Shown piece by piece: positions 1 through 23,329 of a DNA stretch of 64,000 nucleotides; within the stretch, counting starts at the first letter, position 1, and every line of letters begins with the position of its first letter. Position numbers and translations under genes: made by a program. The notes beneath the pieces are model-generated. The model saw nothing but the letters and a program-made list of their open reading frames with translations. It was not told where the DNA came from and searched no databases. Source of the DNA: Laetmonice hystrix (Eukaryota); assembly GCA_965235115.1 (NCBI GenBank), contig OZ249436.1, forward strand, positions 9,984,001-10,048,000. Direction: 5' to 3'.

Positions 1-2044
1 AACGTCTATCTCCAGGATCGAGTTAAGCCTTATCAACGTCGCGATTCATGCATATAAACGAGGCCAGCTGCTTCCCTTTGTGCTCCAGTACAATATCACT
101 GACCTTAATGTGCAATGGTGACCTTTCAAAATTGAAATATGAGCATCTCGAACAAGACATGATAAAATTGAGCTTTCGAATCTCGTTGGGTACACTGACT
201 TCTGGTTCAAGGGAGGAGCGTGTACTTTGAAACACTTGCAAAGTGTCCAGACCGTATTCTTCAAAACGATACTTTTGCTGCAAGAAAGATGTTCAGCTCG
301 CGAACATATTTTGAATTCACCTTCGAGGAAGTTTCACCATAGCCAAATTGAACATAATGTCACGCATGTCCGACAGCCCGAAAACCCTTGTCGTGACCCC
401 TGCCTTAGGGGGTCAGCTGCCCTCTGTCCGGTCGGCGTTCCATCCTACAAACTCATTAATTAATTAGCTTTCCCCTAATGAGATGCAAATTGAAAGAAAA
501 TTACAACGGCCGGAACATTAAAAATCAAATTACGAGCAGCGGCTGCGGTCGCCATGGGGGATTTGGATGATTCCTGGCGGTGAATCAGAGCATGAAATAG
601 ACTAACGGAGGAGATACGGGTTTGTCGTTGACCTGTGAACGTGTGAACCGCCAGCCTCCACCAGCGCACAGCCACTGTCAATCTCGTAAAGCATTTGTTC
701 TCGGGCGCTCATAGTCACCCATCCAGCTAATCGATTAGAAGCATGTTCGTTCTTTTGAACCGAAACGAGAAGCAAATAAGAAATTGTTGGTGTAGACAAG
801 GTCATTTCCCTCAGGAAATTGTCGTTTGCCTGTATCAAGACATTGGCCCGAGCAAAATGTGAGAACGCATATGATTTAAAGACATGAGGCTGGTCGGTTT
901 CACCACGACCAGAGTAACAACCCTCTCAGGAGAGGCAGTATCTTAACTTGCAATGGCGTGTGATGTTTAATACAATGAATAACGCATACTGCTGTTTGTC
1001 ATAAACAGCGCCTCAATACATGTACAGGCCCCTGTTCTACATCATTCGTCCAACCTCTATCAAGCTTTAAAAGGAGGCTGGAATAGTCCGCGTGATGCCT
1101 GCCATTATTGCAGTTTTGTCCATCAGGAATTCTGTTTTACCTATAAAACCACTTATACTCACCTTTATAAATACCGTTGTGCATAAGTGATGATTAGTGT
1201 CATATGATGAAAGACTCAATTATGAGAAAACACGTTAAAAATAATGACAAAATTATCACTTAGGAAACAAATCTTACTGGAAATGTAAGCGTCTTTACAT
1301 CAAGCCTTCTACACAAACGCTTAGATATATTTTAAAATGTTCTGTATAGCTTCGTATCCAACTGCTGCGGCATTTCATACAATATTTTGAATTGTCAGTG
1401 ACACTCGATACAGAAAGACATGAGTGTGTCACATCTTTGATCTTCGACAGCAGACCAGAAAGAAACGTTAAAACGTACAAGTTTAATAAAATTGTCATCA
1501 ATACTATATGCATGGCGTGAAAGGAGCATGACCGTGTTGGAAATGCCATGCTGGTCCATGCTGATTTAAATCGTTTCCATCAAAATGTTTCATGCAAAAT
1601 AAATTGGTAAAATGTGATATGCCATAATAAATGGTTCTAATGGTAAAAAGGGGATTTTGATTAAAACGGTCAAGCGTAAGTTCGGTGTACGAAAAATTGA
1701 CACCATATAAGACACTGCAATGAATTGCACATGCCATAATTGGTGAAGGGTTCTCACAAAGTCACAAAAATTACGAACGTGACGCGGGATGACGAACGTT
1801 TGGTTCAAAAGGAAAACATAAATGCATACGCCTGAGATTGGTTCGATATAAACGGAAACGGTGGGCATGGTGGAACAAACGTCCTAAAATCACGGAAGGA
1901 CTGGAACACTTCGGAACTGACAGCAACATCGGAAACACGGCAATGCAACCAACCAACTAGTTAACCAACCAACCAACCAATACGTATGAGGTATGTATAA
2001 TATAGATAGAGAGAGAACACAACGCAACACCTAGTGTGTCCTAC

Positions 2045-2233
2045 CTTTGCATGCTTTTCTGTTGGTTATTGGTTTGGTTTGATCTCGGTAATATCCCTCT
2101 TGACAATAATGGCAATGTCGGCCGGCCGTGTTGTGCCTACATTTTAGGCACACTCCCCCACTCCGCCGCCCCGACAAAAGGTATAATTCCTTATTGAAAC
2201 GACATCGGCGGGCGTGCAAGTTACAGTTGCAGG
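2045..2233 (-). CDS. NTN1: Netrin LE2 (V-2) exon, copy B
   Basis: ttgcag|CC..AAAG|gtagga; 189 bp; [63 protein letters not shown]. Confidence 0.93.
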
Positions 2234-5200
2234 CTGCAAGACAAAAGAGGAATGAGAACTATAATAGTATAAAATGCATGTTGCCTACCTTTGCACGCCT
2301 TACGATGAGTGATGGGCTTATGTTGGTCCCTATAAAAGCCCTCTTTACAGTAATGGCAATTGCGGCCTGCTGTGTTATGCCTACAGTTCACGCACACCCC
2401 TCCGCTCCTGCGGCCAGATAATTTGTATAGCTCCATATTGAAGCGACATTGCCTGGCATGGAGATTACAGTTACAGGCTGAAAGTAGATAGAAGGAAGAT
2501 GTTTAACGACAGTTAAAGGGTAGATCAGGGCAGAGACGAGCGGTTAGTAGTTGGGCCCACTGCAAGTCTACAGCACCATGGCGTGGCGTACACCAAGCGA
2601 CGCAGGATGACTTCTTGCACGGAGACTCGCTCACACAGTTGGAGAATGCAGTCTACACTTCCTATACCACAAGTCAACCAAGCGTCCCAACCGCCCTTCT
2701 AGAAAAGCAAGACACTGAGGCATTAGCACAGAAGACATTGCAATGCAGTTATCCAAAGAGAGGCGGGGAGTATTTAGACGCATTCCGTCGACCACATCGG
2801 CGTAAAGAGGCTAGCATGTCCGTATTAGTAATATCCAGGAATAAAAGATGTGTTTACTAGTCTAACAAATCAAGCAGTTACTGTCAAGTAGGACTTCATA
2901 ATTTTTCTAAGACCATGCATAATGCAAAAGGTACCACGGTCCACAAACATTATTGCAATGTGGACCCTATATAAACACTAACCTAGAAGCTGTAGCATAA
3001 AAGCACTGCTTAACATATAAAAGCCAATTTCTTTATGTAATGTGCCCCCCTCTTTCTATTCCCAATAATCCTTTGGAAACATTTCATTCATTGAATGTTA
3101 AAAAAATGTGTTAACAGTATTAGGTGGTTTTATTATTCAATGGGCATTATAAAAATCATGATAATTTCAAACTTGCTAAGGTTTCAATCATGAGGCATTT
3201 TTTAATCCATTTATTTATAGGCCCTGTTATTCCTAATACATCAAGGAATCAGTCTGTCAAAATATTGTAGAGTAGAGAAGTAAAAATATAATGTTTTACC
3301 GAAAATAATCCCCCCAGCTGATTATAAATTCACGGACAAAAAAATGAGAAGACGTATAGAATATCATAGCAAAATCCTAAGTACTTTAGGGGAACATTTC
3401 TTAGAATTAATAAAATCTGAAACGATCTTATTACATTATAGAAATCTATTCTAAGGTGGGTATTAAAAAGGCTTTCACTTTCCAGTGATTTACGAGTAAC
3501 AAATGGAGTGAAATACGGGTTAGATCTAATATAAAAGCATAATTAATCCTAACAAAATGGGTTTAAAAGCAAACACAATACAATCACTTCATGCAGTCTA
3601 TGCGAATATTATCGGCACAAGCAAAGCATAAAGCAACCGTGTGTCAAAAATGCAAGTGCGTTTATAAGAATTATTGAGCTTTCAGAATAATAGAAAACAA
3701 GAAAGTCTGGAGATTAGGCAATGTCGTGTCTCCCAACGAGAATAACAAAAAGCGTCAAAATGTAATATCCACCCACCCATATAGCCGCATTGCTTTTTGA
3801 TAATTGTATTTTGAAGACAAAAGGAAGGCATGCAAACAGTAGGCCAACATGCATGGGTCAACCTGTTAGGAAATCACCGAATCAATAAACAAGAGGTATA
3901 TGGCGGATATCAAAGTTGATTCGGTGATACATCACATAAAACAAGGATAATAAATAATTGTAGATATACATGCATAAAATATACGGTTAATCCAATGTAT
4001 ATCTATTACAGCAGAAACGAATACTAATCTATATAAATATCCTTTTTTCAGCATGTATAGAATAGATAAGCATAATCCAGACCAAATCCACCGATTTACT
4101 ATACTTTGTTTTGGCTATTACATATAGTTCTCTGGTGAAAATATGATGGTGCACATGGTACGTCGCCAAAAATAATGTGGGCCTATGTGTTATCTTTGTA
4201 GTCCTATGTGCGAATATGTATGCATAATATTTCATAACTTAATCTGAACCACTGCTTGTCTTATGTTCATGTTTTATTTCGGAAGGGTTGTTACCCTCAA
4301 CTTTCATACGAACCACTAGCCCACACCTTAGGCCTAAAACATAATCATGTTGGACTACTAAAAAATCATTTCAAGGTATTGTCAAGCAAGGTCGGGACCT
4401 ATATATTATAAATGTTGCCTAATAGCGGTGTAGTTTTTGAAGGGATAAATGTAAACACATCTGTACAATGGAAGTCAGGGGCCGAGATCTGACAGACATC
4501 CCTAACCTAGCACCAGGCAGGTGTTCCATGCAGCCCTAGACATCCAGACAATCTTTACGGGATCTGGTAGAGGCGTGGTTAGTATTGTATGCCGATATTC
4601 TGGTTATCTGTCCCACTCGCTGGGCTTGATACAATCATCATGTCTGGCCCGGATCTGTCGGGGTCAGCATCGTTTATTTTCCACCCTACCCATGTAGTGT
4701 CACGCCCCGGCTATCGGACGATCGGGCCGACAAAACCAAGTGGACATGTAATAGGTACATGGGTTTATATACACTTTACGGGGATGGCGAACAGGCTTGC
4801 AAAGTTAACACGCCCATGTTTTTCTGCTATGTCAGCAGATTTGAGAACAGATTGCTCGTGCTCTGTTCATTCTGTATCAGCAGTCGATTTGCGATATAAT
4901 TTTGTTTTTGATCATGTTTTCGTGTAGGAAACAAATGGCCCCGGTTTCTGTCTGTTTGTAGACACGTCGGCCGACGTGTTGGGATAACCCCGACGGTCTC
5001 CAAGTACAGGCGGCCCAGGGCCGACAGATTGGTCGGCGCAGCCACTGCGGTGAAGACGTAGCCATACGTCACACGTTGACACCACTTGGGACGGCGCAGT
5101 ACAACTTGACACCCCTTATCGACTTCATTGTACCAGCTTGTTCCGCCTGGCCCCGGCGCGTGATCTTTAACCTGAGCAGCCCGTCGTATAAAGACTGCCC

Positions 5201-8200
5201 TCCACGAACTTTCTCCCCGCCCAAATCGCCGAGTACATTGACATCAACTATAGGAAGTGATAACGGGGAAACGCAACTTGGTATTATACAGGGTCAGGGC
5301 TCTGATGTTCGTGACCTTGACCCCAGGAGGAGATTAATGACAACTCAATAATACGGCCTTCCGCTAAATGATGTAGGCGTGTGCCATTCACGAGTTCAAC
5401 ATCATTTTCTCGGTTCGAGATCTGATATACAAGACTTTGGACTATAATCTTGATCTCCATAATATATGCCTCATTCAAACATTGCACTCGGCCGGGAATA
5501 CGCCTACTATAACATAATCTGAGCCTGCAACAACAAACATTTAGCCCTGTAGACCCTATAAAACATGACAGTACATGTACTTCCTGACATACCTATATGT
5601 GGCATCCATCTCTCCTGCCTGACTGTTCAGTATCAAAGGAGAGAGGGGTAGGAGAGACAGAGAACAACACTGTTGAGGAGGGTTATCCTTCTCGATGGTT
5701 TCTGGGATATCTAGTATAATGTACATGTAGTCGGGGAATTCTGCAGACAGTCGCTGAATCCGATGGAGATGTGAGACGTATGGGGCTGAATCATTGTTGT
5801 CATAGGGGGTGAAGAAATGTTGTGCTTATACTGGTTGGTGAACCCGGTGAACTTACACGATGCAGCACTCCCATGAACCCTCTATATGATATTGCTCACT
5901 GTTGTCATAAGACATACATATCACCCATGACCTAATGCACCCCGTCGGAAATACCTGCATGCCGAATGGAATCTAATATAAAACAACCAGAAGCTACATG
6001 AGTAAAAAGTTTATGTAGAAAGGGAACTGAAGGGTCAATAATGATAAAAACACAATTTAAGGGTTATCGAAAACCTACATCGGGATCGCTGTGTTTCTGA
6101 AGCTTTACTTTTATATTTCAATAAATCTCTTTCTCACAGCGATTTTCCACCAGTGCCGGGGTCAGTCGTATAAAGGGATACGCCAGCTGCTGAGCCGACG
6201 TGGTGGTGAGGGGGGGGGGGTGCACGTGCTAAAATATGTAAATGGGGCAAGGACAGACAACCAGATTGACTTCTCGTTTTACAGAAACTTAAACTTTGAA
6301 GTTGTTAAAAGTAAAGTACCACTAAGCCTTTATCGAGGTTGTTGGAAAAGCCGTATAACCTAGGGCTGGATTGGTGTCGTTAGCTTGTAGGCCTAACTGT
6401 GAGTAGATCTATATAATGGTCACTGAACACAGAGCTCACGATAACTTTCAGGCCACCGAAATCAACACCTGATAAATCCTGCAGGGCTGATGCTCTACTG
6501 ACCACAGCTATAATATACGCAGGTGTTGGAATATAAGGGGTAGGGGACCGTGCCACTCAAAATTAGAGGGGGGGGGGGGGGGTAAGAATATCATTCAGCT
6601 CCCTATATCACCCCTGGCCCCTGTTTTAGTTCGTCATTTTACCAATCTTAAGACTGAAATTTTAAGACTGACTTGTGCTATGACCTCTCATTGGCTGACT
6701 GCATTTCAAGGACCACCAGAAGCTGTGAAAGAAGAGTTCAGTCTTAAGATTTGAATCTTAAGACTTGGTTTGCAAACTAAAAAGCCGGGCCAGATATATA
6801 ATTGATAGGAATAGGAGTGATTTGATAAACTAGTCCAAACGACTCCCCATCTGGAATAGATTATACGCGCCGACATTATAGCTCCACCGTTTTAAAAACC
6901 TGTAAAATCAGGTTAGTATCACATGCAAAACTCAGATAAATTGAAGTGAGACCAACTACATACATGTAATGTGAGAACGCTCAGCTGACTCCGTTGCGAT
7001 CTAACATCTTCGAACCGCTTTGCCATATGGGGAATTCCCTTATGCGCGCGCAGATGACCTACTTCCGCTATCCTTTTTAGATTTTTAGCTGATTCTGTTG
7101 GATACAGCGGTTTTCGTCGCTTAAAAGCCCCTTTCGTCGGAGGCATATTTGCAAAGCAAGCGTATGCTCAAATATGGTGGAGAGATACGGGTAGTTATCA
7201 TGGGATTCCCTGGAACTTGGGACTATTATGGGATGTTGTTTGAGCGTCATTTGCAGCGCCACTTTCGGAGAGGAGGCAAATTCAAACTCCTGCTATTATC
7301 ATGTTATAGCTTCGGCCCCAATCCTAGTCAACAAAGATCATCATATTGCAGTACTGCAGCAACAGTGTGTCTTCACATTTTATATGTCAATAGGTTGCTA
7401 TGGGTGACAGGTAAGTGTTTTATTTTCGAAGTTACTTCCAGTGTACTTTTAATTTGGTACCATCCAAGCATTTCATGGGTTTACATGTCTAGTTAGGCCT
7501 ATTCTTTAGATGGACGATTTTCCAATAACATCAAACATTGGCAACTATCTATAAAGGGCCTATCATCATTCCTTTACGCCACACTTAATAATGCTGCACA
7601 CGCGAGCGAAAATTGCTACTGCTTCCGCCATTTACTGCACCATGTAGGAGTAGGCTTATGCACTGTTACACTACACATCATGGGTGCTTTTCATTACACA
7701 CTAAACAAAGGCACATGAAGGGACATGCATGCCTTTCATACACATCATATTGCCTACTATAACGACTGTGATTTTACTCATCCATGCCTCCACTGTATCA
7801 ATATCATATCATATCATGAGCAAAGGGATCAAAAAAGGTTCTAAACTCGAAATTGGAGTCTGCACCAGTAGGCCCACGGTATTACGGATAGGACACTTTA
7901 AATTCAGTTGAAATCCTGCATGTGAAAAATATTTGTTGGCAGATGTCAACACTACGTCATGTGTGAGTGTATGGCTCACTGTGAAGACGAGAGGAGAAAA
8001 TTGCATGATTCCGCATAATGTGGACCTAGGCCTAACCTACACAGAGCAAAGTCTGCAATGCTGGGATGGCAATTCCTATAGTTATTGATGAAGCTATTTT
8101 CACGTTTCTGGGCCATATTGTGGGAGGTGAACACACCAGACGAGTCATGTCGTATCTGAATGGACCCACGTGACTAGTGATCGCTAAGACTTCCCTGCGT

Positions 8201-11200
8201 CCATCCATCTTCTCGGATCTGTCACGTGACGGATCCGCCAAACAAGGCGGTCACTACGTCTGAATGGAGACGGATCGAGATACGTATGAAACCTCACAGC
8301 AGAGTACGGGTCGTGATGGTAACCTAGCCGATTCTTCTCACACCAAACGAGGTGAAGTCATCATGAGATGGCATGCATGCTGAAAGTTAGGAGGGTCCTT
8401 TTAGGTGGGTTGAAAGCCGCTCTCTCTCTCTCTTTTATTGCGTATCGATCAAGAGAAACCTTCTGGGGTACGTGGTCAGCATCCGCGACAAGCCACGCGC
8501 ATCCTTTCCCACCACGTCACGTCATGTGTTACGTTACGTCACGTCACGTCACGGACGCGTACCGCTCCAGTGATCAGACCGCCAGGACCATCGCTCGCGT
8601 TTCTCTCCGGTTGTGGGGCCGGGTTTGAAGCAAACCAGAATTGGCGGGACAGGCGTTAGTAACACGTTGCACAATTTGTCGGGACGGGTACTAAACAGGG
8701 GTGTGTAATGTGGTAAATGGTCGGAATGTACAGCCATCGGGCAGGGTGTGAGGAGCGGGCGGCGCCCGCGGCCTCATAGCGAGACATGAACGCCCACCCC
8801 GTCACCGCTTCTGCCTCCCGGAATGAAGATGGATGGCTGACCGAGGTCGGCCCGACTCGGCCTACCCTTCTGTTGGTCGACCGCCTGGCACGCTCGCCTG
8901 CCCGTCACAGACCTCCCGCCCACAAAACCCAGCTCGCATATATACCTAGTTCAATCAAATCCATACGGCGAAAAAAAGTCTGTGCTTGAAAATACTGAGA
9001 AACTGATTTCGCAACCTTTTTCTACTTTGGCCTGCACTAAATGCTCCTCCGTTGCCGGGTAACGACCTCCTACGGGCTCAGCCATGTAGCGTCACGAAGC
9101 TACGGGTGCCCTGATTAATCGGGGGCCTCGGGTGGCCGAGTGGTCTAAGGTGTCGGCTCCATCATGACACCTAGGACCATCGCCTCACACCGCTGCGACC
9201 CGGGTTCGATTCCCGGCCTGGGCTGCATGTGTGAAAGGTTTGTCAGTCAGTTCCTTCCCGAAGGTCGGTGGTTTCCTCCGGGTACTCCGGTTTCCTCCAC
9301 CAAGAAAAACTGACTTTCATCTCATCTTCACCGCCGTGATATGACCCTGGCTGTTGCAAGGCGTAAAACCCCAAATACCCACCCACCCTGATTAATCCAG
9401 GCTTTCTTGTACCAGACAAAGGTCAATGAGTAAAATACTAGTACAGCGTCTTCGTTCAGGTTATTTCCCAAATTTCCAAATGATTACTCAGGCCGTCATG
9501 CACGGGCTCACTTCCTCATTACTTGATGGATTCTCCTTTCCAAGGAACTGTGCCAGTTGCTTGGATTCTTGCGGCGAGGCCTACTCTACACAGAGGTCTA
9601 TAGGCTATCTCTCAGTTCGACTCCAATGGGGTTGAATATCGAGGCCTCGTCATGTGCTAACCAGACGCTCTGGGACTATCACGAAGAAGATGGACAGTGC
9701 TGGTTGCAGTCACACTGTTGTTACCAGCTGCTATGGATATCTTCACTCACCCGCCAATTTTCAGTATGGACAAAATTAATGTGCTCCTGCCCAGTGCCGA
9801 CATGTTTATTTGGCTGTCATTGACGGCTCGAACAAACCGGAGGCCCCCAAGAACAAGTTCAAGAGCTGCCGTCATGAAAGCAGACAGCATCGACGGAAAG
9901 CTACTGCTATACGTAAAGACGATCTTTACAAACAACCACAACTTTTTGTCAAATCCTCTGCATACAATTACTGGAGATGTCATCCGATGTTTCTGTACGA
10001 GGGTATTTTCTCTTTTTTCACTCCTACCGCCAGAGTTGGAGCATTGCACCATGGTGTGTGCCGAGACACGGACGAATTAAGATGTTTCAGGGGGACAAAA
10101 CTGGTGAGATGTTGGTGGATCTGTCAACAAGCTTGTCAGTAATCCTCCCTGAAAACTATTCTTTCGTTGCGGAGATTGTAAATGATAACACACCTGGAAC
10201 AAGATTGCTAATCCGATCTGCGCTCGTTGACAAAGTGTAAACTCGGCCGAGGCTCCAGCCTAACAAACATGTGCCGTGTAGCTGTGATTAAACAGTCAGC
10301 AGAGAACGAAGGAGAACGTGCACAAGTGGCGAAGTCAGAAACTCTCTTGACATCAAAGAAACTGTGTGAAGCTACCTGTATCAATAGTCCCGCTGCGCAC
10401 ATGTCATGCAGGGAGTGACAGCGCTGAGGCCCTGGCGGTGTACAGGGGCATCCAACCAGCAGCCTGGCATATACACGACAGTCCATTAAGCCACCTAGAT
10501 CCGACTGTCTGACAGGACATTGATACAGTACGGCTGGAGACGGTAAGGTACCGGGGTCCCGATCCCTCCGTGGTGTGGGATTGTACCACTCGTTCACCGA
10601 CGTCCCATGGCGAGGACAGTTGCCGGTTGTTTGGTTGACTTGTTTAACACTAAGACGGCATTTAAGACCATTTCAACAAAACACTCACAAACACCTTTTC
10701 AACTGGTGATGAGGAGATGATCACATGGAAACCTCCAACTCGCCAGGTTAATAATACCCTACAGTTTGTGATGAGATCTGGCTGCAAATATCTCATATAC
10801 GCCCACTCTCAAAAACTCGGCTGAATAAACCGATACCTTTTATATGTAGGAAACCTTGAGGGGAGCAGTGTGGCTATACGTGGAAATACTCAAGGCTTAT
10901 AGAGTTCCAATCCTAACCACAAACTTTTCTTACCGCTCCGCGCATTTTTTGCTCGTGGTGGAAAACTAAACGCTTACATAAATAAATTGACAATTTCTAC
11001 ACAGTTTTCGACGATATCCAATATGTGTTCCACTGTGTTCCAATTATATACTTCTGTTCGTGATTCTGCAGCCTATAAAGATTTTGAACTAATGACAGAT
11101 TTGACGGACAAGACTAGTAATCGGTTTATTCATGTTAATTTTCAGTAGATCTATTTGTTCAAGGCATTTTACTTTAGAACATCCCAGAAATAAAAAACTT

Positions 11201-14200
11201 ATTTCTGCTTTCTTGAGAATTAAAATCTCAAACTTGAGAGAAAATGTGTCGTTTATTCATAGGCCTACATGAAGTTAAATTGATCTCTCAATTTATATTT
11301 TCTTTATTACCGCAAAGTCATGTCTTTTTTGGTACATGTATGTATACCTCCACCCTGAGAAACCGTGTACCCTTCCTTTTATCCTTTCTACGCATTAACC
11401 TGTATACATACGCTTAATTTAGATATCTAAGTGATGAGCCAGGGAAAGGGATCCAGGATAGCGCGGGGATAGGCCAGCGGGTTATCCCAGCGGGATACCG
11501 ATAAACTGGGCGGTGGAGTTGGAACCAGTACTCAGTTAAAAGATTCCGGGTCGAATATCCCCCACCAGTCTGCCACATTGACACCAGGATTAGGGCCGGG
11601 TACGTTCTCCACCCCCAACACCCCCCGGCCTACAAAGAAAAATCCCGACGGGTCAAAGCAGAGTCAATTCATCACACATATGTCCGCAGGTGTAAATAAA
11701 CAACTTGCGAGCCAATCTCCGTTTGCCATCGAGCGTAGATCCACACTCGAGCACAATTAGCTAAAGCTAAGGTCTGTGTAGACGGTTGGCCTTCTGTGTA
11801 GCGGCGCTGGAGCAAAACGCACGATACACCATCGGTGGAGGCTTATGCCAACTCAACCAGTAGCATATGCAAAGGTTCCATACAATCGGAGGTATACAGA
11901 GGGGACCACATACAGGCATAAAATGGGGTTGGCTGGGCGGAGTCATCCGAGTGCAGCCCGCCTATAGTGTGAACGTCGTGTCGGTGGCACACTCGGTTGA
12001 ATGCCAGGCCGGGAGGTGTTGGGGGGGGGGGGACTTGCGGAAACTCTTCATCAATTATTGTCAAAATGGACAGCAATAACAGGAACACCATAAAGTGTGC
12101 ACCTTCATATCGTGTCGTTGGGAAGTGCCGATTTGTTAAATATTCATCGGTAGCTCGTAACTTTTAGATCGTGTTAGGGTTTACACGAGAAATACCTTGC
12201 CGCGATATGTATCTGATGAGGCTTCCATTCGTGCCGCGACATGTATCTGATGAGGCTTCTATTCGTGCCGCGATATGTATCTGATGAGGCTTCCATTCGT
12301 GCCGCGACATGTATCTGATGAGGCTTCCATTCGTGCCGCGATATGTATCTGATGAGGCTTCCATTCGTGCCGCGATATGTATCTGATGAGGCTTCTATTC
12401 GTGCCGCGATATGTATCTGATGAGGCTTCTATTCGTGCCGCGATATGTATCTGATGAGGCTTCTATTCGTGCCGCGATATGTATCTGATGAGGCTTCCAT
12501 TCGTGCCGCGATATGTATCTGATGAGGCTTCCATTCGTGCCGCGATATGTATCTGATGAGGGTCTATTCGTGCCGCGATATGTATCTGATGAGGCTTCCA
12601 TTCGTGCCGTGATATGTATCTGATGAGGCTTCTATTCGTGCCGCGATATGTATCTGATGAGGCTTCTATTCGTGCCGCGATATGTATCTGATGAGGCTTC
12701 CATTCGTGCCGCGATATGTATCTGATGAGGCTTCTATTCGTAGAAAGGATATATGATCTCTCCGTGCTATATACTCTAATATCAATAATGCATTAATACA
12801 CAATAATATAGATACTGCATGCATATGGTAGGCCTATAGTCATGAAGATCTATAGATAAACACAAAATAAAACGACTCCGTGCCTTGTCAGATGAGCTTT
12901 TCATACACATCTCCATAATTATCGAACCACAGGGAAAGCTTTCAACATCCTCACTGAGTAGAAACTGAGATGACAATGAATCAATGGGCGTGTTCGCCAG
13001 TCATCCGCCATTCAGCATAGAAATAGCGTGGTTACTGTGGTTGTTGTGATTCTATCTCATGGTCCCGCCGGACTAGTTCCGAGTCACGGAGATGAGCAAG
13101 ACTTGATCAGTCTGTGGCCCTCATGACACACTCCCATATCGGGGCTAAAATCGGTTAGCTGATCCACTGAGTGATGGTCAGTGCCAGCCCAGCGCAGACA
13201 TTGCTATAAATGACGGATATAGCAGACTCACTGAGGACAAAAGAACATTTCTGTCGTTTGGGCCAGTACCCGCCGGCAGCTATATGGTGGTGATGACACC
13301 GCAGAGATCAAGGAACGCGTCATTATGGGCAGTTTGATAGAATCACGATAAATCGTCTCGCCAGAGATACGCCGGGCCGTATGGATCATCGCAACTTTCC
13401 ACTTTCGGTATGCGAACAAAATCCCGAGCGCTTGCAGAGACAGGAGCCCGTGTCTGGCCACCTTGTTCTTACACTGAAACCAATTTGTTTGACCTGTCAT
13501 TGACGGAATCGATTCTATGCCGTCTGCCACAATGACGGACATCGCCCGCGGTGACGGGTAAATGTACTCATTGTAAGCTGTCGGTATGGGCGTCCATGTA
13601 CAAGTGGGATGGTAGGCTGGTAGCGAGGGGAACAATGGCCAGCCTCGCCCCGTTCAGGCCGTCTTAATTAAGGATCTAGCCGGGCACCATCTGCGGCGGT
13701 TTGCTTAAAAGCTACTACGTCATGAAGAGATCCAGACAAACTAGTGTAACTCCCTTAAGTGCTTCAATGAAAGGGAAACGTTTCGATTGTTTCCGGGGTA
13801 GAATAGAGACACGTAACACTGGGGTTCTAATGGTACTTAACTTGGCAGACGGATTCTTTGTGCGACAACTCAGCGGAACTGATGCAACCTCTGTTTGCCG
13901 ACAGTCGGGAGAGTAATACTTTTGCTGGAATACTTTGAAGAGAACATCAAAGTACCGCTAAGAACTGGCTCGCTGCTTTGTGATGAATTTATCTAAAAGT
14001 TTCTTCAAGGCAGCGTGGTTTGATTAATTTGACACCCTGTGTTTGATTAAAATCAATCTACATGGTTTTCAATGGTACAGGTCCTGCACGACGAGCGTCC
14101 GACCTCGGTCCGCCTATACGACATGTGATATCAGGGTTCGACGCGCCGTCTAGCGGTGACCTTTCATCGCCTCCCAGGTGTGAAGCACCATTTAGTCCGG

Positions 14201-17200
14201 CACCCTGCTCTCTAACAGCAGTGCGTGCCAATCTCTGCTCTCCGAGTCCCTGTCTCAGAATAATGTGGTTTGAATATACCTCTGACAGTGTCGGGGCGCA
14301 TATCTCAACACCAATTCTCAAACCGCTGGAATCTAAACAAAAATATGAGTCTTAAATGTTACTGTAATTACACTGTAATATTAAAAACATCATGGTCTAG
14401 TTGGTACGGATGTTTGCTTTTTCTTTCTTCCTTTTCTTTTTCCCTCCCAACACTTGCAAAGTGATGAAATGACTGTTGCGAAACGGAAGCACTAAGGTAT
14501 AGTTGTAAGCACATGATGTAGTTTTATGTAGATTGATACTGCCAGTTGGTGTTGAATGAATGCGAACTAACCCTGTCCAAACTCATCTATTCCGAACGTC
14601 TGCAGCCCTGTATACGGTGTCTGAACGATGAAAGTACAGTTCAAATGACCGACACACATCCGCCTTCATTTAGCCAGTACAATGCAAATGTACGGTGTAC
14701 AGTTACGACGGAGTATTAAAGGGCACGCAGCGCCCCCTACAGGGGGAAGTACCTCCCCACACAGATATCTTACGTCACAGAGCGTCCTGACGGGTAGGGA
14801 GGCGACCTGCTCGCTAGGTTGCTTTGTTCATAATGATAGCTGTCACAGTGGTCCTAGGTCAATACGAGTACGATTTGAAATGAGACCACAGTTCGAGTTT
14901 GAAGAGTCAGTCCAACAAATATTTCTGAAGACACGAGGTCACAAATAACAATTGACCTGCAGAGATAATCAAAGAAAGACGCCGAGAGGTCGAACGGTAC
15001 AGTTTAGTTTTGAAAGCCCTTTGATGAAGGGGCATGTAACCCGAGGCTTACAGCAGGTTGGCGCAACATGGACAGATGTATGTAGGCCCACATGGATATA
15101 TGCACAATGAAGTTCCAGAGCTTATGCCAGCTTATATAATATAGGCCTATTCTGCATGGAAATTCCGGTTAGGGGTAGGCTATATTCCAAAATACCCTCG
15201 GGCATGCCTGTAGAAATGGAGTAGAGAAAGAAAGAAGCCTACATGTGCAAGATCAATTGTCCGGCCGGCGTCATTATAATGACCATTTCTATACATGGAG
15301 GACAACGGAGTCCCCCAGAAACTTCTAAACCTCGAAGCAAGAAACTGACAAACTTTCACACGCAAAGCAAGAATGTAAAAGTTCAGAGGCCAAGACCAGT
15401 TTTCGAGGCCCACTAATGACGATTCTATCGAGCAGTTCCAGCGGTTTCAAAGCCATACTTTTAGTATTAACGAAAGAGTATTAATGTGTGTATAGGCATA
15501 TACAGTGTAGCCCTATGTCCATCAGAGGAAGATGCTGGGATACAAACAATCCTATGATTTCGTACGAGTTCTCGAAACTGCATGCAGGCCCGATACATCG
15601 AAATTTGGTGACCTTGAAGACTGGGTGGGTCAAAAGCGGGAAAAATAACAAGAACAAAGCAACCAAAGGTAAAATACGTGTTCTGGTGAAATGATTGTGG
15701 ATTCTGGTGAAACTGTATGTTGAACAGATCTGAAACTAGGCCTCCTTGGATGTAGCTCGACTGGAAAGTACGCTATATGTGCTGGGAGTGTTTCAAAGGC
15801 TGTTGTCGGGGAGCGCCGTGTAGGGAGGTGTTTACCGTACGTGTGATGCGGCCGGTGGTAGGCGGCCGCGTGTGACCGGCCGCTCAGTCGATTCAAACAT
15901 ATACGACAGGTCCGGGCTCCCCGTCAACAGCCACAGAATCCACATCCATGTGTACACACGGACACCTAACAGACCCCGTCAAACAGCCAAGTGTGTACAA
16001 AATGTTCTCCTTTTAACAAATACAAATTCAGAAGCCAGACGTAGGCCTATAGCTGACGTTACAGTATGGATGGACCGCAACCACCGATAGAGGGCGGAGG
16101 TGTATGGTTCTTAAAGCAGCACCAGTTACTAGTTCTTTGTGCGTACGATCTCATGGAGACTTCATGCATGGTAGACTGCTAACCAGAACTTTGACAAAGT
16201 TTGTCCAAATTTATCATAAACACACAGATTGTAAGTTTATTTGTAAAATGTGTTCTCAAAGACTTGTATTTAGGCATTTATTGATTTAAGGTATATCATG
16301 AATACTATGTCTTAAAGGATACCTCCGGACAGAATTCAAAGAACCGATTATCCTATTATTATGATGACAAAGATTCTGACTCTACACGTATCGATCAAAA
16401 CTTTCAGTCACTGAACAATAATATGCATGTACCCTTGCGAAGGACGGTACCTTTGTCACATTTAAATCAGCAAACAGCGTGACTGTTTTATTACTTATAT
16501 AGGCTATAAGGGAAGTCGCGTTCCTGTTATATTTTGGGGTTACAGTGAGGCATAAATTGTAATACCGGAATAAAGTAGGGTTTCAATTGGGGCCAAGGAG
16601 TTGGATGATAAAGGAAAGTAGCGATAACATCGTCCAGAATTTAGGGGAACTGGAGCCCCCCCCCACCCGTAGCCCCCTGGATCCACCACTGCACACTTCT
16701 AGTATAATCTAACCCCTATACAAAAACATGTTAGTTGAAACAATTTATGACAGGGGCCTAATTGCTATAGGAATAACCAATGACATGTTCTACTACAATG
16801 CAATAATATTTATAGAGCTTAACTTCGGCGAATAGCACACGAAGATCCTGCTTTGTAACATGTAGTTTGAAGCTATCTTTTAAGTACATGTGGGGGGGTC
16901 CCCTTTTGAAATACTTGTTGTACTCTGTTAGGTGTGAGATAAGATCTCTCATTTGCCACAACTGTGCTTAAAATGGTTGTCGTATAGGCTAGAATGTCAC
17001 AACTCGAGTCTAACAGGGACGTATCCCTGTATGGAGGCATGGAGACGGTATCGTTTAACTTTAATCCAGGCGCCATACCCGACTCTACAATATGGGCAGC
17101 TATATATAATATCACCAAAATGGAAACATATTGCTTCCCCCCCCCCCCCCATAGATCCCTATAGGCACCTATACACGTAAATAGGCTCCTTTTTTACATT

Positions 17201-20200
17201 TATGACATTTTCAAATAAATCTTTACGTTACAAACGTTTTCAAAGCCGAACGACCTTCCTGTGTTAACACATCTGTAAAATTGTCATTATGTATTAATCA
17301 TGTAAAATTGTCATTATGTATTAATCATGTAAAATTGTCATTATGTATTAATCATGTAAAATTGTCATTATGTATTACAATCAAACGATTGTACTAATTC
17401 CAATAACCGACGATTATAACATGATAGCAGCTGCAGGTGCAGTGCATTGTGGGAGAATTGTTCCTGATTTGTGCCCCCCCCCCATATATGGCTGAATTGT
17501 TCTGTTTTTGCAAGATAGCTTTTGAAATATTGACACCCCCAGGTGTTGGCATTATTCCGCCGAGATGCTGAATAATGTTTCTCCCTTGTAGTCTGATATG
17601 GGATTAACAATGACAAATAATGATAAAGGAATCGGTACCAGTTGGTGACGGAAGCCTTACAATTACATAATTTGTGATAAATCGTTAACAAAACTACGGT
17701 AATTCTTTTATTCGGTTATACCGAACTAGTAGTTTATACATTCACACATTCACACCCACACACACCCGCGTGCGCACGTGTATGGCTATACGTTGTGTCC
17801 AATATATTTATAGGTCTATATATATAATAGTATATAGGCCTACTATACGCCTAACGTCGACATTTTTGACTGTCAGGGGGGTCGGTGGTGATTTATGAGA
17901 GTTCTTTATCTCCGTGTTTAATCTTGATTTGTTAATTGGTAGTTTATGGTCACAATGGACCGCAATAATTTTACCACCGTCTATTGTCGCCGATAGCGGT
18001 AAATCGGAGGCTGGTTTCATGGTCGGCCTGCCATGGGTCGCTCATTTGCTGGGTGCCCGTAGCTCCCGCGGCCCTATCTACGACGGGACAGGCGTTACGG
18101 GGGCCCATTAGTGAGTCGGGCACCCCTCGGTGCTCACCGTGGACTGAGAGACCCCTGCTGACCGGCCGGGTACCTGCTGATATTCCCTCAGGTCGTCGTC
18201 TTGTACCGCCCATCTCCTATAGCCCTCCTCTCCAACTATCACAGGACTTGTGTCTGAAAGTGGGTCCGTACACCGCCTGTGTTCTGACACTGGTGGTCCC
18301 TTTGTGAGGGTGACACTGTCAGAATCAGCTGTCACACAGCTATTTGTAAGACACACCGATCTAATCGGACTGTAATCTGCTTACCCGTCAACACCCGGGT
18401 GGTGGAACGGGTCGGCGGAGACCATTGGTCGGAGTTGTACGGACACGGGTCCCCGCCGGGCGGTGGCCTCCCGCCTTCACCATCCCGCCGATCATATAGT
18501 ATAAGGCGCTCTCTGATGTGAGCTCCGGTTTGGGGGCACACCTCGCTGTCCACCTGCGGGGAACTGGTGAACTAAGTCTACCTGCCGTCCAGGCTGTGGT
18601 CCCCGCTGGTAGCGACAGAAAGCATCCCGCCAGGCCGTGCCACCCGGCTTCTCTAACCAGGCACACACACGGTTCCCAACCTATCGGCTTGCCTGGCGGG
18701 AGACTGCCTTCTACTTTAATACAGGCTTCCAGACAACTAAAGGAGGGGGGGGGGCACTGTGGACCCTACAAATTGCTAAGTTTTAAATGCCAGATGAGGG
18801 AGACACAATATATGTGAGGCCTGGCTTCTCTCGGAGGGTGGGCCGGCCGATATCAGCTCCAGGTACGCAACCCGCTCGAGCAGGGCCCCATGTGGTGCAC
18901 TCTTTTATCGAAAAACCTAAGTACATCTATTGCATCATTACTTTGTGCCCTGTTTCTCCTTATGTACTTTACCCTGTGTCTCAATTGGTTGCATTTTTTA
19001 AATCTGAAAAAAATATATATGAACAACCTCATAAGAAGGTGAATCGTAAACTTATGCTTGCATGATAAATTGAACACACTATACACTAATAGGCATATAC
19101 AGGGCATAAGTTTTGGGAAAGTTTCAGTAGGTAAAGTGCTCAGTATTCGGCCATAATTATTGAACCGACGAACTGGGAATTATAGGCTATACGATATCAC
19201 CAAGATACAGTGTACGCATCCGACCTGGCAAACGTCAAATGGTTGGACCCTTTGGTCTGAGCAGACCACCCTCGTCACCGGCCGCGATTAAAGGCAACCA
19301 ATGTCTGCGATTGGAAAGGGGCGGGCTGACCTACAAAGGCCATCCATACTTTCAAGGACAGTGGTCATTAGAGGAGTAATAGGAACGAGCTGTCTGGGGG
19401 ACAGTTCGGGGACAGTTTGGGGACATTCGGGGACAGTTCGGGGACAGTTCATTGGGCGAGTCTGAAGTCTTCGACACATTAGTGTCCGCAGCTCTGAAGA
19501 TTAAAAAAGAACGCTGGTCGGGTCAAGGATGCTTGGTCTGCCCTGTCTCCTGTCTGATGCCAGTAGACATGAAGTCTTGTTGCCGGTGAAGCAGCCTACT
19601 TGTGCACGCCACCAGTTAGAGTCTCCCCCTGCTGTGCGGTATTAGGCCCGGGGTTGGTGAGGGTGGGCCACCGGGGCCAGGACCGGCCGTGTATCGGGCA
19701 ACGTCAGGACCCACGTGTCGGTAACCTCACAGCTGGGTAATGACTACCGGCACACCCTCGTCAGCATACCCCCCTCCCCCCACGACACCCGCACCCCCAC
19801 CTCAACATCACGGACGTGCGAACTCTACACGTGCGCTACAAGACATTGCCCTTTCCATCGACGATATCAGCCGCGTGACTTGTAGAAATCAGTGGGTAAT
19901 CGGGCCTGATTCAGAACCGAATATTTGGGATACTGCAAGAATTTTCTTATCGTGTCAGCGAGAGCTACCTCAGCCACGTGGGAACACCCTTCTCATTTGT
20001 TACTTGGATATTTTATATAGCACCTCAAAATTCACCATTCATGCAGTATATTCAATACGGAATATACCTGCAAGCCTTTACACCCCGGCCTGGTTTTCCA
20101 TGATGAAATTTAACATTTCATATAGCGACACCGTATGAAACTTCAGAATCGGTTGATCCTTGTTTAGGTAACTTCCTTAATGATCGATGCAGTCTATGGA

Positions 20201-22258
20201 AGTTAAACATTTAACATAACAAAAGCTACAGAGCCGATAATACCAGGACCCAGTTCGTGTGGGTGGTTTCGTACAATAGTTGCCTGTCAAGTAACGAGAC
20301 ACAGAAAGCCCCACACGTCACCACTCCTGCAGCATTCATTCTGCCGGAGTGTATACTACAAACTGTTGTGACAAATGTTTACTTGTATCACACACTCTAT
20401 GCACGTAATATACCTCTCGCTGACGGATAACATGTTGGTTCATTTTTTGGCCAGTACAACATGTTAGCCTGTCTAAGTTGTGCTGCTGCCATCCCTTTGA
20501 TATCCGGGGTTTGATGACGTTTAGCTACCATGATAAAGTAACTGGCAAGAAACACGTGTTGACCATATGCTGGTTTATATACGATACGATCCTAGGTTTG
20601 AAAACTTGCAAGATGCAGCAGCAAAGGGGCGTCCCCTTGCTGCTGGGTACCAGGCTGATACATGGAAATGGGAATGATAGTCTATGTTATATATAGTCTA
20701 AAAGGTTTTGTGAGCGAATCAATATGTTTGGTGGGTAATTCCATATCGGCGAGGGCAGTGTTGGGAGACGGTTGCCGGCCGACCGATCAGGGCAGGCAGT
20801 GAGGAGGGCGATGGTTTGGGTATGATTGGCGTGGATGGCGGTCCAGACGTCTGGTTTACGTCAGGCTGCCGTCATTCCTCACACTTATGTCATGTTACCT
20901 GCGAATGACTGCGACTATGGCATAGTAAACGGGATCGAGAGGGGGAGAGTTTTGTCAGATTGACAGACCATCAATGCCGATACCTTGGATGATTATACTC
21001 AATTTAAAAGCTAACTGATGTGTTCCAGCCCCTTTCTGTGTTCACTGAGTTATGTTGGGTGGGTGTTTTGTATCGTGGTTTCTATAATGTTACCTCGATT
21101 GAGGCCGCACCATGTGCACCATGTGTAAGACAAGTCGACAATAAAATACGAGAGCTGAAGGAAACTAAACGCATGCACGTCATAATGTAAGAAAAAGGTT
21201 TCATGAGGAGACGTAAGACGTTACTTACCTACGCACTCGTTGGCTTCCTTAGCTGTGGCGCGAGCCCACGGCCGGTCAAAGTGAAACGGTTTGCATCGTT
21301 CGCAGTCGGTTCCCGCAGTGTTGTGCTTACAATCGCACTGGAGTTTTCCCTCCTTGTTTGTCGTACAGCGAGACGCGTGACCATTGCATTTACAACGACC
21401 TCCGACGGCGAAGTCGGACAGGGCGTAGAAGTAGCTCTCCCGGGCCTCTTCCTCGTTCTCCTCGTCACCGTAGGTGTTGAGGCGGTTGAAGACCACCATG
21501 ATGTCCGTGGCTGTCACCCAGTCCTGGAGGACGGGTGAGTTGTCGAAGTCGTAGGCGGACGGGCGTCCTTCCAGGGTGCTGAAGGCGACGCGGGCCCCAC
21601 TCAGCGGGTCAATGTTACTGTAGGCATCAGTACATAACGCCTCCTGTTCGTTAGCTTTGGTGATGACAGCACGCGGTGATTTCGAGTACATTTTCTTACA
21701 CTGGCTGGAATAGAACTGGAAGGGTACCCAACTGTTGCCGTAATCCGTACTCTTGAAGATAGCCATCGAGTCTGGCCGCGCAGAACAGAACTGCAAGCTG
21801 ACATAGGTGAGCTCATACTTCTTCTCGAGAGAAAGAGTGAGCGTAACGTTTTGAGGGAACTGGACGAACGGTTCCGACATCCAGCACGTCAAGTTGTTGG
21901 GGTTGTTCAGATCGGTTAGATAAGTTGACGGGTGGCGTCTTTTAGGGTGGTTGGAATCGCAGATGAAACAATTGCGTACCATCTTGCCCTCTTTATCAGT
22001 TGTCGTCTGACAATAGCGAGAGGGTGGTGACCCGCACGTGCTCGACGCCTTCACGTCCTTGCCGAAAGCGGCATTGACAAAGTCGGGAATACAACGTCGC
22101 GGCTTGTTCTGCTCGTCAACACAAGGGTCCGGCGGATTCTGCTGGGCCGCAAACATGTTTAGAAAAGACGCCGCCCCCGATGTCCGCACGTGCAACCCCA
22201 GTAGGCACCACGCAACGCACAGCAGAACGTGCACACGCCACAACCTTCCCGCAAACAT
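2045..22258 (-). CDS. NTN1: Netrin gene, 5' part (exon 1 21229-22258; LE2 exons 2289-2477 and 2045-2233; LE3 and C345C exons not found, presumably left of the window)
   Basis: Translation matches netrin-1/UNC-6: [67 protein letters not shown], then [23 protein letters not shown]. Phase-1 junctions are compatible. Confidence 0.96.
2289..2477 (-). CDS. NTN1: Netrin LE2 (V-2) exon, copy A
   Basis: tttcag|CC..AAAG|gtaggc; 189 bp; [63 protein letters not shown]. Confidence 0.95.
3825..3854 (-). promoter_or_regulatory. Candidate intronic RNA docking element complementary to the netrin exon A 5' splice site
   Basis: Inverted repeat with 2274-2301: 26 Watson-Crick and 2 GU pairs, two 1-nt bulges; contains two UGCAUG motifs. 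Confidence 0.6.
6615..6792. mobile_element. Palindromic MITE
   Basis: Imperfect long inverted arms TGGCCC..TCTTAAGACT. Confidence 0.6.
9121..9385 (+). mobile_element. Full-length tRNA-derived SINE with a V-domain-like core
   Basis: A box TGGCCGAGTGG, B box GGTTCGATTCC, core GGTTTCCTCCGGGTACTCCGGTTTCCTCC, (ACCC)n tail, 12-bp TSD CCCTGATTAATC (9109-9120, 9386-9397). Confidence 0.9.
12198..12740. repeat. 34-bp minisatellite, about 16 copies
   Basis: TGCCGCGATATGTATCTGATGAGGCTTCYATTCG. Confidence 0.95.
17274..17377. repeat. 27-bp tandem repeat, about 4 copies
   Basis: TGTAAAATTGTCATTATGTATTAATCA. Confidence 0.9.
21229..22258 (-). CDS. NTN1: Netrin coding exon 1: signal peptide, laminin N-terminal domain VI, LE1
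   Basis: ATG at 22258, hydrophobic leader, ends ANECV G|GTAAGT (phase 1). Confidence 0.97.
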
Positions 22259-23329
22259 GTTTATAGACTCTCGATTTGTAATAAAAATCTGAGTACCAAA
22301 AGTGTGTTTTCTAGGCTACTGTGATACTAAAGAGGGTCTAACTAAGCTAGCATCCTTTATAATGAGCCCCAACAGTGGTCGGAAATAATTTACCTGTACA
22401 ATGTGGTCAAACAGACCTGCTTCAATAGATTTCCATCTGACACAAGGGGTTGGTTACAAACACATAAACATCCAGGCTTCAGCTTAATGAAATAAATCCA
22501 AAATACGCGCAAAACATAAACTTGTAAAATCCGGACCCGATCTTAACACTTGATTATTAGTTGTGATATCCACGACTTGCTATGGCATTCGGTTGCTCTT
22601 CGGTTGAACACAAATTTCGCAGTTTTTAATCTAGGCTTAGTCCGTCCACGTCACTGCAAAAGTCTTTGAAACTCGCCAAATTGTGTTCAAATGTCTCCAC
22701 AGATATGTTTTTACCCTTACGTTCCGAGTGAGGTATGGTGGTTCTCACATATTTGGCGAAGGTTCTCCTTAACTTCAGGTCAGTAATTACCTTGGTGTTG
22801 GGTCGGCGGTTCTCTTTCCTCACTTTGGCAGCGGTCAAGGCAAGACGATCCAGATGTCAACTGCGACTACTAGCTTGAACTTGTTAAGTTGTCGTGTGAA
22901 CTCGAATCATCCTTTTCTACTTTAAAAGTCCTGAGCCGGCCGAACAACCAACAACAAGCAATTTAAGAGTAAAGTGAGATTTGTGAAGTTTGTGGCCCAA
23001 CTGATAGCTGTGACGCTGAAGCCACTGTAGGCGTCAGCTCCCGGCTCGGCCGTGTCTGTACTGGGCGATGAGCGGCCCGCCACACACCGGCGGCAGCGAG
23101 TCGCTGGACCTCTGCTGGGAGTTCTGTGAGCCGCTCACTCCTTGCAGACGAGGAGTAGGTGGACATCACACTTTACCCTGGAACCATGCCACAGAGTAAT
23201 CGGTGATGGTGTTTTCTGCATCAATAGTCATAATCGTCAGCTGCTCCCTGCTGTCTTACCGTCGAGGTGTGAAGTCCTCGCGCGATTAAATGTTCATGCT
23301 CGTGTCGCCTCTGTTTGGAGGTGTGATTG

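Follow-up and report, generated by a model that had tools for sequence, protein, structure and literature searches.

A probable pair of mutually exclusive exons for the second laminin-type EGF module in a netrin gene of Laetmonice hystrix

Netrin is a central axon-guidance cue, and its two opposite effects, attraction via DCC and repulsion via UNC5, are usually explained on the side of the receptor. Vertebrate netrin-1 and UNC-6 of Caenorhabditis elegans share one domain order, in which a laminin N-terminal domain (LN) is followed by three laminin-type EGF modules (LE1, LE2, and LE3) and by the NTR domain, and both have a single LE2. The gene described here lies on the minus strand of a 64-kb stretch of the Laetmonice hystrix genome (contig OZ249436.1; G000:C1:9984001-10048000), which is called the window in what follows. 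It has the same domain order, and the vertebrate LE2 module is 84–89% identical to LE2 here; it is an ordinary netrin gene of the netrin-1/UNC-6 type with one extra LE2 exon. We think it quite probable, from sequence comparison across many animals, that the two LE2 exons, A and B, form an alternative pair that is used in a mainly mutually exclusive way. Together with the intron between them, they are located as follows:

2289..2477, minus strand: exon A, coding for the A-type LE2 module; 189 nt, phase 1-1, peptide end ITHRKACK

2234..2288, minus strand: intron between A and B; 55 nt, GT..AG, reading GTAGGC...TTCTCATTCCTCTTTTGTCTTGCAG, with TTTTGTCTTGCAG at its end

2045..2233, minus strand: exon B, coding for the B-type LE2 module; 189 nt, phase 1-1, peptide end ITNRKACK

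Each copy contains eight cysteines and matches the Pfam EGF_laminin profile, with 37.5 bits for exon A and 39.9 bits for exon B (cut-off 21). A pyrimidine tract and CAG precede each exon, and AAAG/GTAGG (the slash marks the exon border) follows each, continuing as GTAGGC after A and as GTAGGA after B; all four splice sites are GT-AG with U2-type contexts. Aligned without gaps, A and B are identical at 137 of 189 nucleotides (72.5%) and at 52 of 62 residues (84%). At 32 of these 52 conserved residues the codons differ, and the duplication is therefore old and no artefact of assembly. The Nei-Gojobori proportion of synonymous differences (pS) between the two copies, 0.96, lies above saturation and was treated as an artefact of the many six-fold codons, so that codon counts were used instead. 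Neighbouring, homologous, and equal in length and in phase at both ends, A and B have the properties by which a tandem-duplicated exon pair is recognized. The first-pass annotation of this DNA had reported two 189-bp phase 1-1 LE2 exons with eight cysteines each, an old duplication rather than an assembly artefact, and a separation of 55 nt with a branch-like CTCAT about 36 nt from the donor. Reading of the minus strand and the Pfam matches bear out the exons and the peptides first given for them, the codon differences and the presence of the same pair in the independent contigs L005-L008 bear out the age, and the A of CTCAT does occupy intron position 36, 19 nt before the acceptor.

Annotated netrins of other animals provide the evidence that the two exons are used one at a time. 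RefSeq isoform pairs of netrin-1 and netrin-1-like genes from molluscs, from the brachiopod Lingula anatina, and from the nemertean Lineus longissimus carry the same exon pair, have equal length, and differ in LE2 only; examples are X1/X2 of Ostrea edulis, X2/X1 of Crassostrea virginica, and X1/X2 of Mytilus edulis, Haliotis rufescens, and Patella vulgata. The RefSeq sample comprised 58 models from 19 species, taken from the 90% clusters of ten representatives (for the Mytilus cluster, 15 of the 24 members were listed). A-only and B-only isoforms are both annotated in 15 of the 19 species, mostly with identical length among the models listed. These species are Patella vulgata, Mytilus edulis, M. 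galloprovincialis, three Haliotis, Mizuhopecten, Argopecten, Pecten, Ostrea edulis, two Saccostrea, Crassostrea virginica, Lingula anatina, and Lineus longissimus. A single LE2 is found in 57 of the 58 models. The two module types can be told apart by their patterns, ..AR(Q).. in the A-type and ..ARRCxFN(K/R)ELYLLSG..GR(H/F)CHYC.. in the B-type.

Besides the RefSeq models, nine full-length netrins are found on transcript-like contigs of 2.3–4.5 kb, which must be spliced RNA because the gene spans tens of kilobases here, and all nine have a single LE2 (P0026, P0027, P0036, P0038, P0054, P0056, P0059, P0163, and P0198). Only two of them are rows of the tree described below, P0027 as a member of the B clade and P0198 with a place in neither clade. 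Of the rest, P0036, P0054, P0056, and P0059 are B-type by motif, P0163 repeats a scallop module of the A clade, and P0026 and P0038 resemble the module of Dreissena, itself a member of the A clade. The alternative use of the exon pair, as the first-pass annotation had proposed it, is thus supported by comparison, through the A-only and B-only isoforms of most RefSeq species and the single LE2 of nearly all models.

Other variation was observed in the same set of proteins. The isoforms of the relatives have a second alternative region, independent of LE2, in which they differ by 13–25 residues right after LE3. In Ostrea edulis (P0072 vs P0171 and P0073 vs P0175), PCI-IATTTTPPLINTTTDGAPT-KRPKTT stands against PCI-KRPKTT. 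The region is also present in Mytilus, Haliotis, pectinids, Lineus, and Lingula, and it resembles a small cassette exon for the linker that precedes NTR. Moreover, many vertebrate RefSeq models named netrin-1 isoform X2 (P0084-P0120 and P0204-P0276, of about 553–556 aa, from fish, turtles, frogs, and lizards) join LE2 directly to ..ACKEIPV/I, skipping LE3 of the form of about 604 aa.

The pair is old and both of its members are conserved. A scan of metagenome contigs with both LE2 peptides returned 80 loci; a search of this kind across related genomes had been suggested along with the first-pass annotation, and it recovered the same tandem A-B pair in the four closely related contigs L005-L008. 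Between the window and these orthologues, nucleotide identity is 80.6–84.4% for exon A and 80.6–82.8% for exon B, with 67–76% in the cross comparisons of A with B (window and L005-L008). The ratio of nonsynonymous to synonymous differences (pN/pS) against the four contigs is 0.10–0.22 for exon A and 0.05–0.10 for exon B, at 0.45–0.72 synonymous differences per site. Judging from these substitution patterns, A and B are both under purifying selection, and the low pN/pS of both means that both exons are translated in this lineage.

A maximum-likelihood tree was built from 57 LE2 modules of 62 columns each, which is too short for fine detail. It contains a B clade of 22 rows (support 95/93) with exon B of the window and an A clade of 26 rows (support 95/96) with exon A of the window. 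Each of the two clades holds molluscs, Lingula, and Lineus; in addition, the B clade includes the annelids Owenia and Capitella, and the A clade includes two more brachiopods and a second nemertean. The single-copy LE2 modules of arthropods, echinoderms, hemichordates, amphioxus, fish, and Xenoturbella fall outside both. In the sample, vertebrates, arthropods, echinoderms, and amphioxus have one LE2 type that mixes A-like (FNMELYK) and B-like (GRHC, RRCR) characters. The A/B labels in the tree table were set by one module residue, which makes them partly circular, and three rows are mislabelled. Gene position does not depend on such labels: of the seven two-copy sequences, six have an A-clade module upstream and a B-clade module downstream, and only in P0196, from a divergent taxon, are the two LE2 copies sisters (97/94). 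On the evidence of this tree, the tandem duplication of the LE2 exon predates the divergence of molluscs, brachiopods, and nemerteans.

Several single lineages show departures from this arrangement. The sister copies of P0196 point to gene conversion or to a separate duplication. In the Capitella teleta model P0200, the end of exon 1 is followed by about 40 codons of apparent intron and then by a B-type LE2, and no A-type exon seems to sit between exon 1 and the B-type exon. The 112-aa tick model P0197 of Hyalomma asiaticum contains two LE2 stretches that are identical over their shared part, which looks more like an artefact of assembly or prediction than like a pair of old exons. Another lineage has an A-B intron of 173–188 nt with the upstream copy intact in two contigs (L071:1139-1324 and L083:1124-1309), and in three further contigs of the same lineage the upstream copy is decayed, truncated, and with Cys changed to Tyr (L060:1278-1388, L064:697-789, and L078:1280-1369). 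Loss of a copy therefore does happen, and this lineage appears to have been caught losing one exon of the pair. In L072-L075, relatives of L071 and L083, an upstream LE2 copy was not found within 1.5 kb. Of two further groups of contigs with record-name prefixes in common, one carries A-type exons (ARQC..GRNC; L052, L055, L058, L059, L062, L063, L076, L081, and L084) and the other B-type exons (L009, L012, L016-L018, L021, L028, L029, and L041). No contig of either group has both types within 1.5 kb, and in the taxon concerned the two exons may be separated by a long distance or belong to different genes. A third LE2 type occurs in L068, L069, L077, L079, and L080.

Upstream of the exon pair, the window contains the beginning of the gene:

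21229..22258, minus strand: netrin exon 1, with the start codon at 22258, signal peptide, laminin N-terminal domain (VI), and LE1

2478..21228, minus strand: intron 1, 18,751 nt, with boundaries read from the sequence

The open reading frame (ORF) of exon 1, 21221-22315, has 364 aa and matches the Pfam profile Laminin_N with 4.7e-82 over profile positions 1-233, and EGF_laminin also matches; in a whole-genome Pfam search, the best match of Laminin_N (PF00055) is at window 21398-22093 on the minus strand, with 2.8e-80. The exon ends in ...GAGTGCGTAG/GTAAGT, that is, ...ANECV plus one base (G), in phase 1, its last base being 21229. The 3' part of the gene is beyond the window, because the window covers only the interval given above. 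The LE3 exon, read on the fetched stretch L002 about 10.96 kb downstream of exon B, opens TTTCAG/CTTGTGAC (CT TGT GAC TGC), also in phase 1. Further downstream, beyond the window, the NTR profile (PF01759) matches the same strand at G000:C1:9965796-9965963 and 9963691-9963831, which would be the NTR exons of the gene. The gene thus encodes four laminin-type EGF modules (LE1, the LE2 of exon A, the LE2 of exon B, and LE3), and three are expected per mRNA. All the possible joints, exon1-A, exon1-B, A-B, A-LE3, and B-LE3, are in frame and in phase 1, reading ..V/K-A-C... The exon 1 protein has best matches of 84–87% identity, and its best named matches are molluscs (Sinanodonta 82%, Lottia 81%, and Gigantopelta, Solemya, and Littorina 80%), after which nemertean, brachiopod, and annelid netrins rank with 69–75%; the proteins found included none from this species. 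The window outside the netrin gene was only skimmed; it has an ORF at 31727-32824 (minus strand) with leucine-rich repeats followed by a rhodopsin-type 7tm_1 domain, like an exon of an LGR-like receptor, and a CUB-domain fragment at 43628-44236 (minus strand).

The ten residues that distinguish the two modules can be placed on a known structure. The LE2 of exon A corresponds to residues 341-402 in the netrin-1 chain 8snp_A, which has 604 aa, and UNC-6 (8edk) also matches. In the numbering of 8snp_A, the differences between A and B are 349 Q/R, 354 M/K, 358 K/L, 369 V/L, 370 N/K, 379 N/H, 384 K/Q, 387 F/Y, 392 H/T, and 397 H/N, and three of them (349, 354, and 358) are within the loop-b segment; the numbering of PMC13759497 is two residues higher. 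According to that structural study of 2026, the LE2 loop-b helix (350-366 in its numbering) is one jaw of the clamp on UNC5B Ig2 and also the epitope of the therapeutic antibody NP137, and the loop-b segment of vertebrate netrin-1 binds UNC5B, NP137, and heparin (PMC13759497). The lysine of LYKLSG is key, the mouse change K358L lowering binding (PMC13759497, citing Grandin et al. 2016). The main heparin contacts are made by the RRXR Cardin-Weintraub motif and by the Arg of CRHNTAG; heparin is needed for high-affinity binding, and the RRXR motif is outside the direct protein-protein interface (PMC13759497). The first-pass annotation had attributed UNC5 binding in vertebrate netrin-1 to domain V-2 (LE2) and its Arg cluster. 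The part of this claim that stands is that LE2 holds UNC5B, by its loop-b; the RRXR motif itself acts through heparin and not at the direct interface (PMC13759497).

Copy A reads RQCR and keeps Lys at the K358-equivalent. Copy B reads RRCR, has gained Lys at 354 and 370, and has Leu at the K358-equivalent, the very site of mouse K358L. Across taxa, B-type modules nearly always have K or R at 354 and mostly L at 358. The two isoforms would differ in the face of LE2 that binds UNC5 and heparan sulfate, with a weakened RRXR motif (RQCR) in A. By analogy with the vertebrate protein, we regard the proposal of the first-pass annotation, that A and B differ in binding of UNC5 or heparan sulfate, as a well-founded hypothesis.

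For the splicing itself, each mRNA would take up one of the two exons between exon 1 and the LE3 exon, which follows about 11 kb further on, and two netrins with three LE modules would result. As both exons have a length that is a multiple of three, transcripts with both or with neither would escape nonsense-mediated decay. Other ways to exclusion are steric interference, incompatibility of U2 and U12 splice sites, competing RNA structures, and regulators (PMC4165533). For steric interference, the criterion applied in human is a donor-to-branch distance below 50 nt (PMC5740500), and five clusters with too-short introns, all of exons with a length divisible by three, are reported for C. elegans (PMC4165533). 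With an A-B intron of 55 nt, any branch point within it is less than 50 nt from the donor. In addition to the CTCAT described above, there is a second YTNAY with its A at position 19 from the donor, so that the A donor would be hindered by candidate branch points of the B acceptor only 19–36 nt away.

The orthologous A-B introns have 49 nt in L005, 69 nt in L006, 57 nt in L007, and 76 nt in L008. A search with the exon B peptide for longer proteins also found eleven prokaryote-style read-through ORFs in genomic contigs of ten taxa, reading from A through the intron into B, with introns of 45, 48, 51, 69, 75, 78, 81, 99, 108, and 129 nt; this sample is biased to stop-free introns with a length divisible by three. 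We regard steric interference as plausible, and probably at work, in the window and in its nearest relatives (introns of 49–76 nt), where the branch points are candidates only, but not as the general or the sole mechanism, given homologous introns of up to 188 nt. Which of the two exons is taken would depend on regulators that bind conserved elements in the flanks.

Two such elements were found. One is TCTACTTTCAG, directly before exon A and identical in all five sequences compared (window and L005-L008). The other follows exon B:

2016..2031, minus strand: UG-rich intronic element GGTGTTGCGTTGTGTT, starting 14 nt 3' of the exon B donor; candidate site for a splicing regulator

This element, also written GUGUUGCGUUGUGU, has the form GTGTTGC(G/A)TTGTGT and is situated 14–40 nt after the exon B donor in four of the five sequences (window, L005, L006, and L007), being absent in L008. 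It is conserved where the remaining intron is unalignable, the blastn alignments ending at window 2017. When 5 kb of the window was compared with L005-L008 by blastn, the two exons and at most 28 nt of flank aligned, and nothing further did; no conserved placement of GCAUG (RBFOX), YCAY clusters, or ACUAAY was found in the flanks of the same sequences. From their conservation, TCTACTTTCAG and GTGTTGC(G/A)TTGTGT may be carriers of the A/B regulation. Among other motifs near the pair, a perfect TACTAAC is located at window 2549-2543 (minus strand), about 70 nt before the exon A acceptor (71 for ACTAAC), with a pyrimidine-rich stretch after it, and in L008 ACTAAC occurs at -74; the TACTAAC may serve exon A as a remote branch point. 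A (TTGG)4 microsatellite, interrupted by TTAACTAG, begins 66 nt after the exon B donor (window 1940-1980; CAACC repeats on the plus strand), and it is not present in L005-L008.

Several points weigh against the proposal that A and B are mainly mutually exclusive and functionally different. The RefSeq isoforms are automatic models, and in this species the splicing of A and B is predicted from genomic sequence; a search for sequencing runs listed four runs of one study, none of them as RNA. Four of the 19 RefSeq species have A-type models only among the rows listed. Double inclusion would keep the reading frame, and one RefSeq model, X4 of Saccostrea cucullata (692 aa), holds A and then B, while partial gene models of Plakobranchus, Pinctada, and Bradybaena also join A to B. 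The homologous A-B intron has 99–188 nt in some taxa, and introns of about 40–55 nt are spliced in some animals, the minimum in C. elegans being about 40 nt (PMC4165533). As for function, the K358-equivalent varies in A-type exons (K, T, Q, N, S, E, I), and the vertebrate binding data may not carry over to the UNC5 of this animal. Part of this would be expected if A and B were two independent cassette exons under loose exclusion, giving A-only, B-only, A+B (four LE modules), and perhaps neither, in proportions set by regulators. Every one of these combinations keeps the frame, the Saccostrea model would be a case of A+B, and the longer introns are long enough for splicing. Set against such loose exclusion are the single LE2 in 57 of 58 RefSeq models and in nine of nine transcript-like proteins, the short intron of the window and its four nearest relatives, and the fact that no model without any LE2 was met among the full-length netrins examined. 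We consider it unlikely.

A constitutive netrin with four LE modules, made from mRNA that invariably contains A and B after ordinary removal of the 55-nt intron, would have the frame and good splice sites on both exons in its favour, as well as the A-B joins of Plakobranchus, Pinctada, and Bradybaena. These three models are, however, partial, and their prediction method is not visible in the records. Moreover, such a protein is at odds with the A-only and B-only isoforms annotated in 15 of 19 RefSeq species and with the one LE2 on all the transcript-like contigs, and a tandem LE2 is absent from all 120 netrin/laminin proteins of more than 636 aa listed as matches of exon 1. A constitutive form with both modules is thus very improbable in our view. 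It is hardly credible, finally, that one of the copies here is an unused relic, a pseudo-exon next to the only copy that is spliced in. L060, L064, and L078 do have a decayed upstream copy, and in L072-L075 none was found, but A and B of the window keep their eight cysteines, splice sites, and phase, have pN/pS of 0.05–0.22 against four orthologous contigs with near-saturated synonymous change, and are of types that both appear in annotated isoforms of many species. An alternative, mainly mutually exclusive use of A and B remains our preferred reading of the locus.

The full-text literature searched, which included few subscription journals and no supplements, yielded no account of a netrin with alternative exons for LE2. 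To that extent, the first-pass annotation was right in knowing of none, though the isoforms sit in RefSeq. The human survey of mutually exclusive exons names netrin or NTN nowhere in its main text (PMC5740500), and in PMC3319590 netrin appears in the reference list only. The A/B pair seems, then, to be present in public annotation for molluscs, a brachiopod, and a nemertean and to be undescribed in print within the literature searched.

If the two exons are used as we propose, the ligand itself has two forms that are conserved across phyla and differ in the segment that holds UNC5B, NP137, and heparin. A and B are a natural variant pair for testing the role of loop-b, and also a deeply conserved pair of exons with a length divisible by three for studying exclusion without nonsense-mediated decay. 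A broader scenario can be put forward, tentatively and with clearly less than even confidence. In it, exchange of the loop-b module of LE2 would have served spiralians to tune a single netrin gene over more than half a billion years. Form A would have the vertebrate-like UNC5-binding helix with a weak heparin motif (RQCR), and form B would be more basic, dependent on heparan sulfate, and K358L-like. The exon choice, perhaps made by a CELF-type factor at the UG-rich element, would then set whether UNC5-bearing axons are repelled or only DCC-bearing ones are attracted.

The closest likeness to known splicing control is found in C. elegans unc-32, where UNC-75, a protein of the CELF family, directs the choice of exon 7a from the pair 7a/7b via a UG-rich UUGUUGUGUUGU in the downstream intron (PMC3585155). 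The netrin element, GUGUUGC(G/A)UUGUGU, resembles UUGUUGUGUUGU in kind of motif and in position alone, and it is missing in one of the five sequences; a control of the netrin exon choice of the unc-32 kind is a lead, suggested by analogy, and not a result. As to architecture, exons 2/3 of alpha-tropomyosin, 9/10 of C. elegans let-2, and 5A/5B of egl-15 are likewise homologous tandem exons of equal length, divisible by three, and of the same phase. They are likewise separated by a very short intron, and nonsense-mediated decay cannot enforce their exclusion (PMC4165533). The introns of the worm pairs have 14–30 nt, clearly below the minimum of the species (PMC4165533), whereas the 55 nt between the netrin exons can be spliced in some animals. 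Tandem-duplicated mutually exclusive exons are thus a class already known, and what is notable at the netrin locus is the gene, the site within it, and the conservation across phyla.

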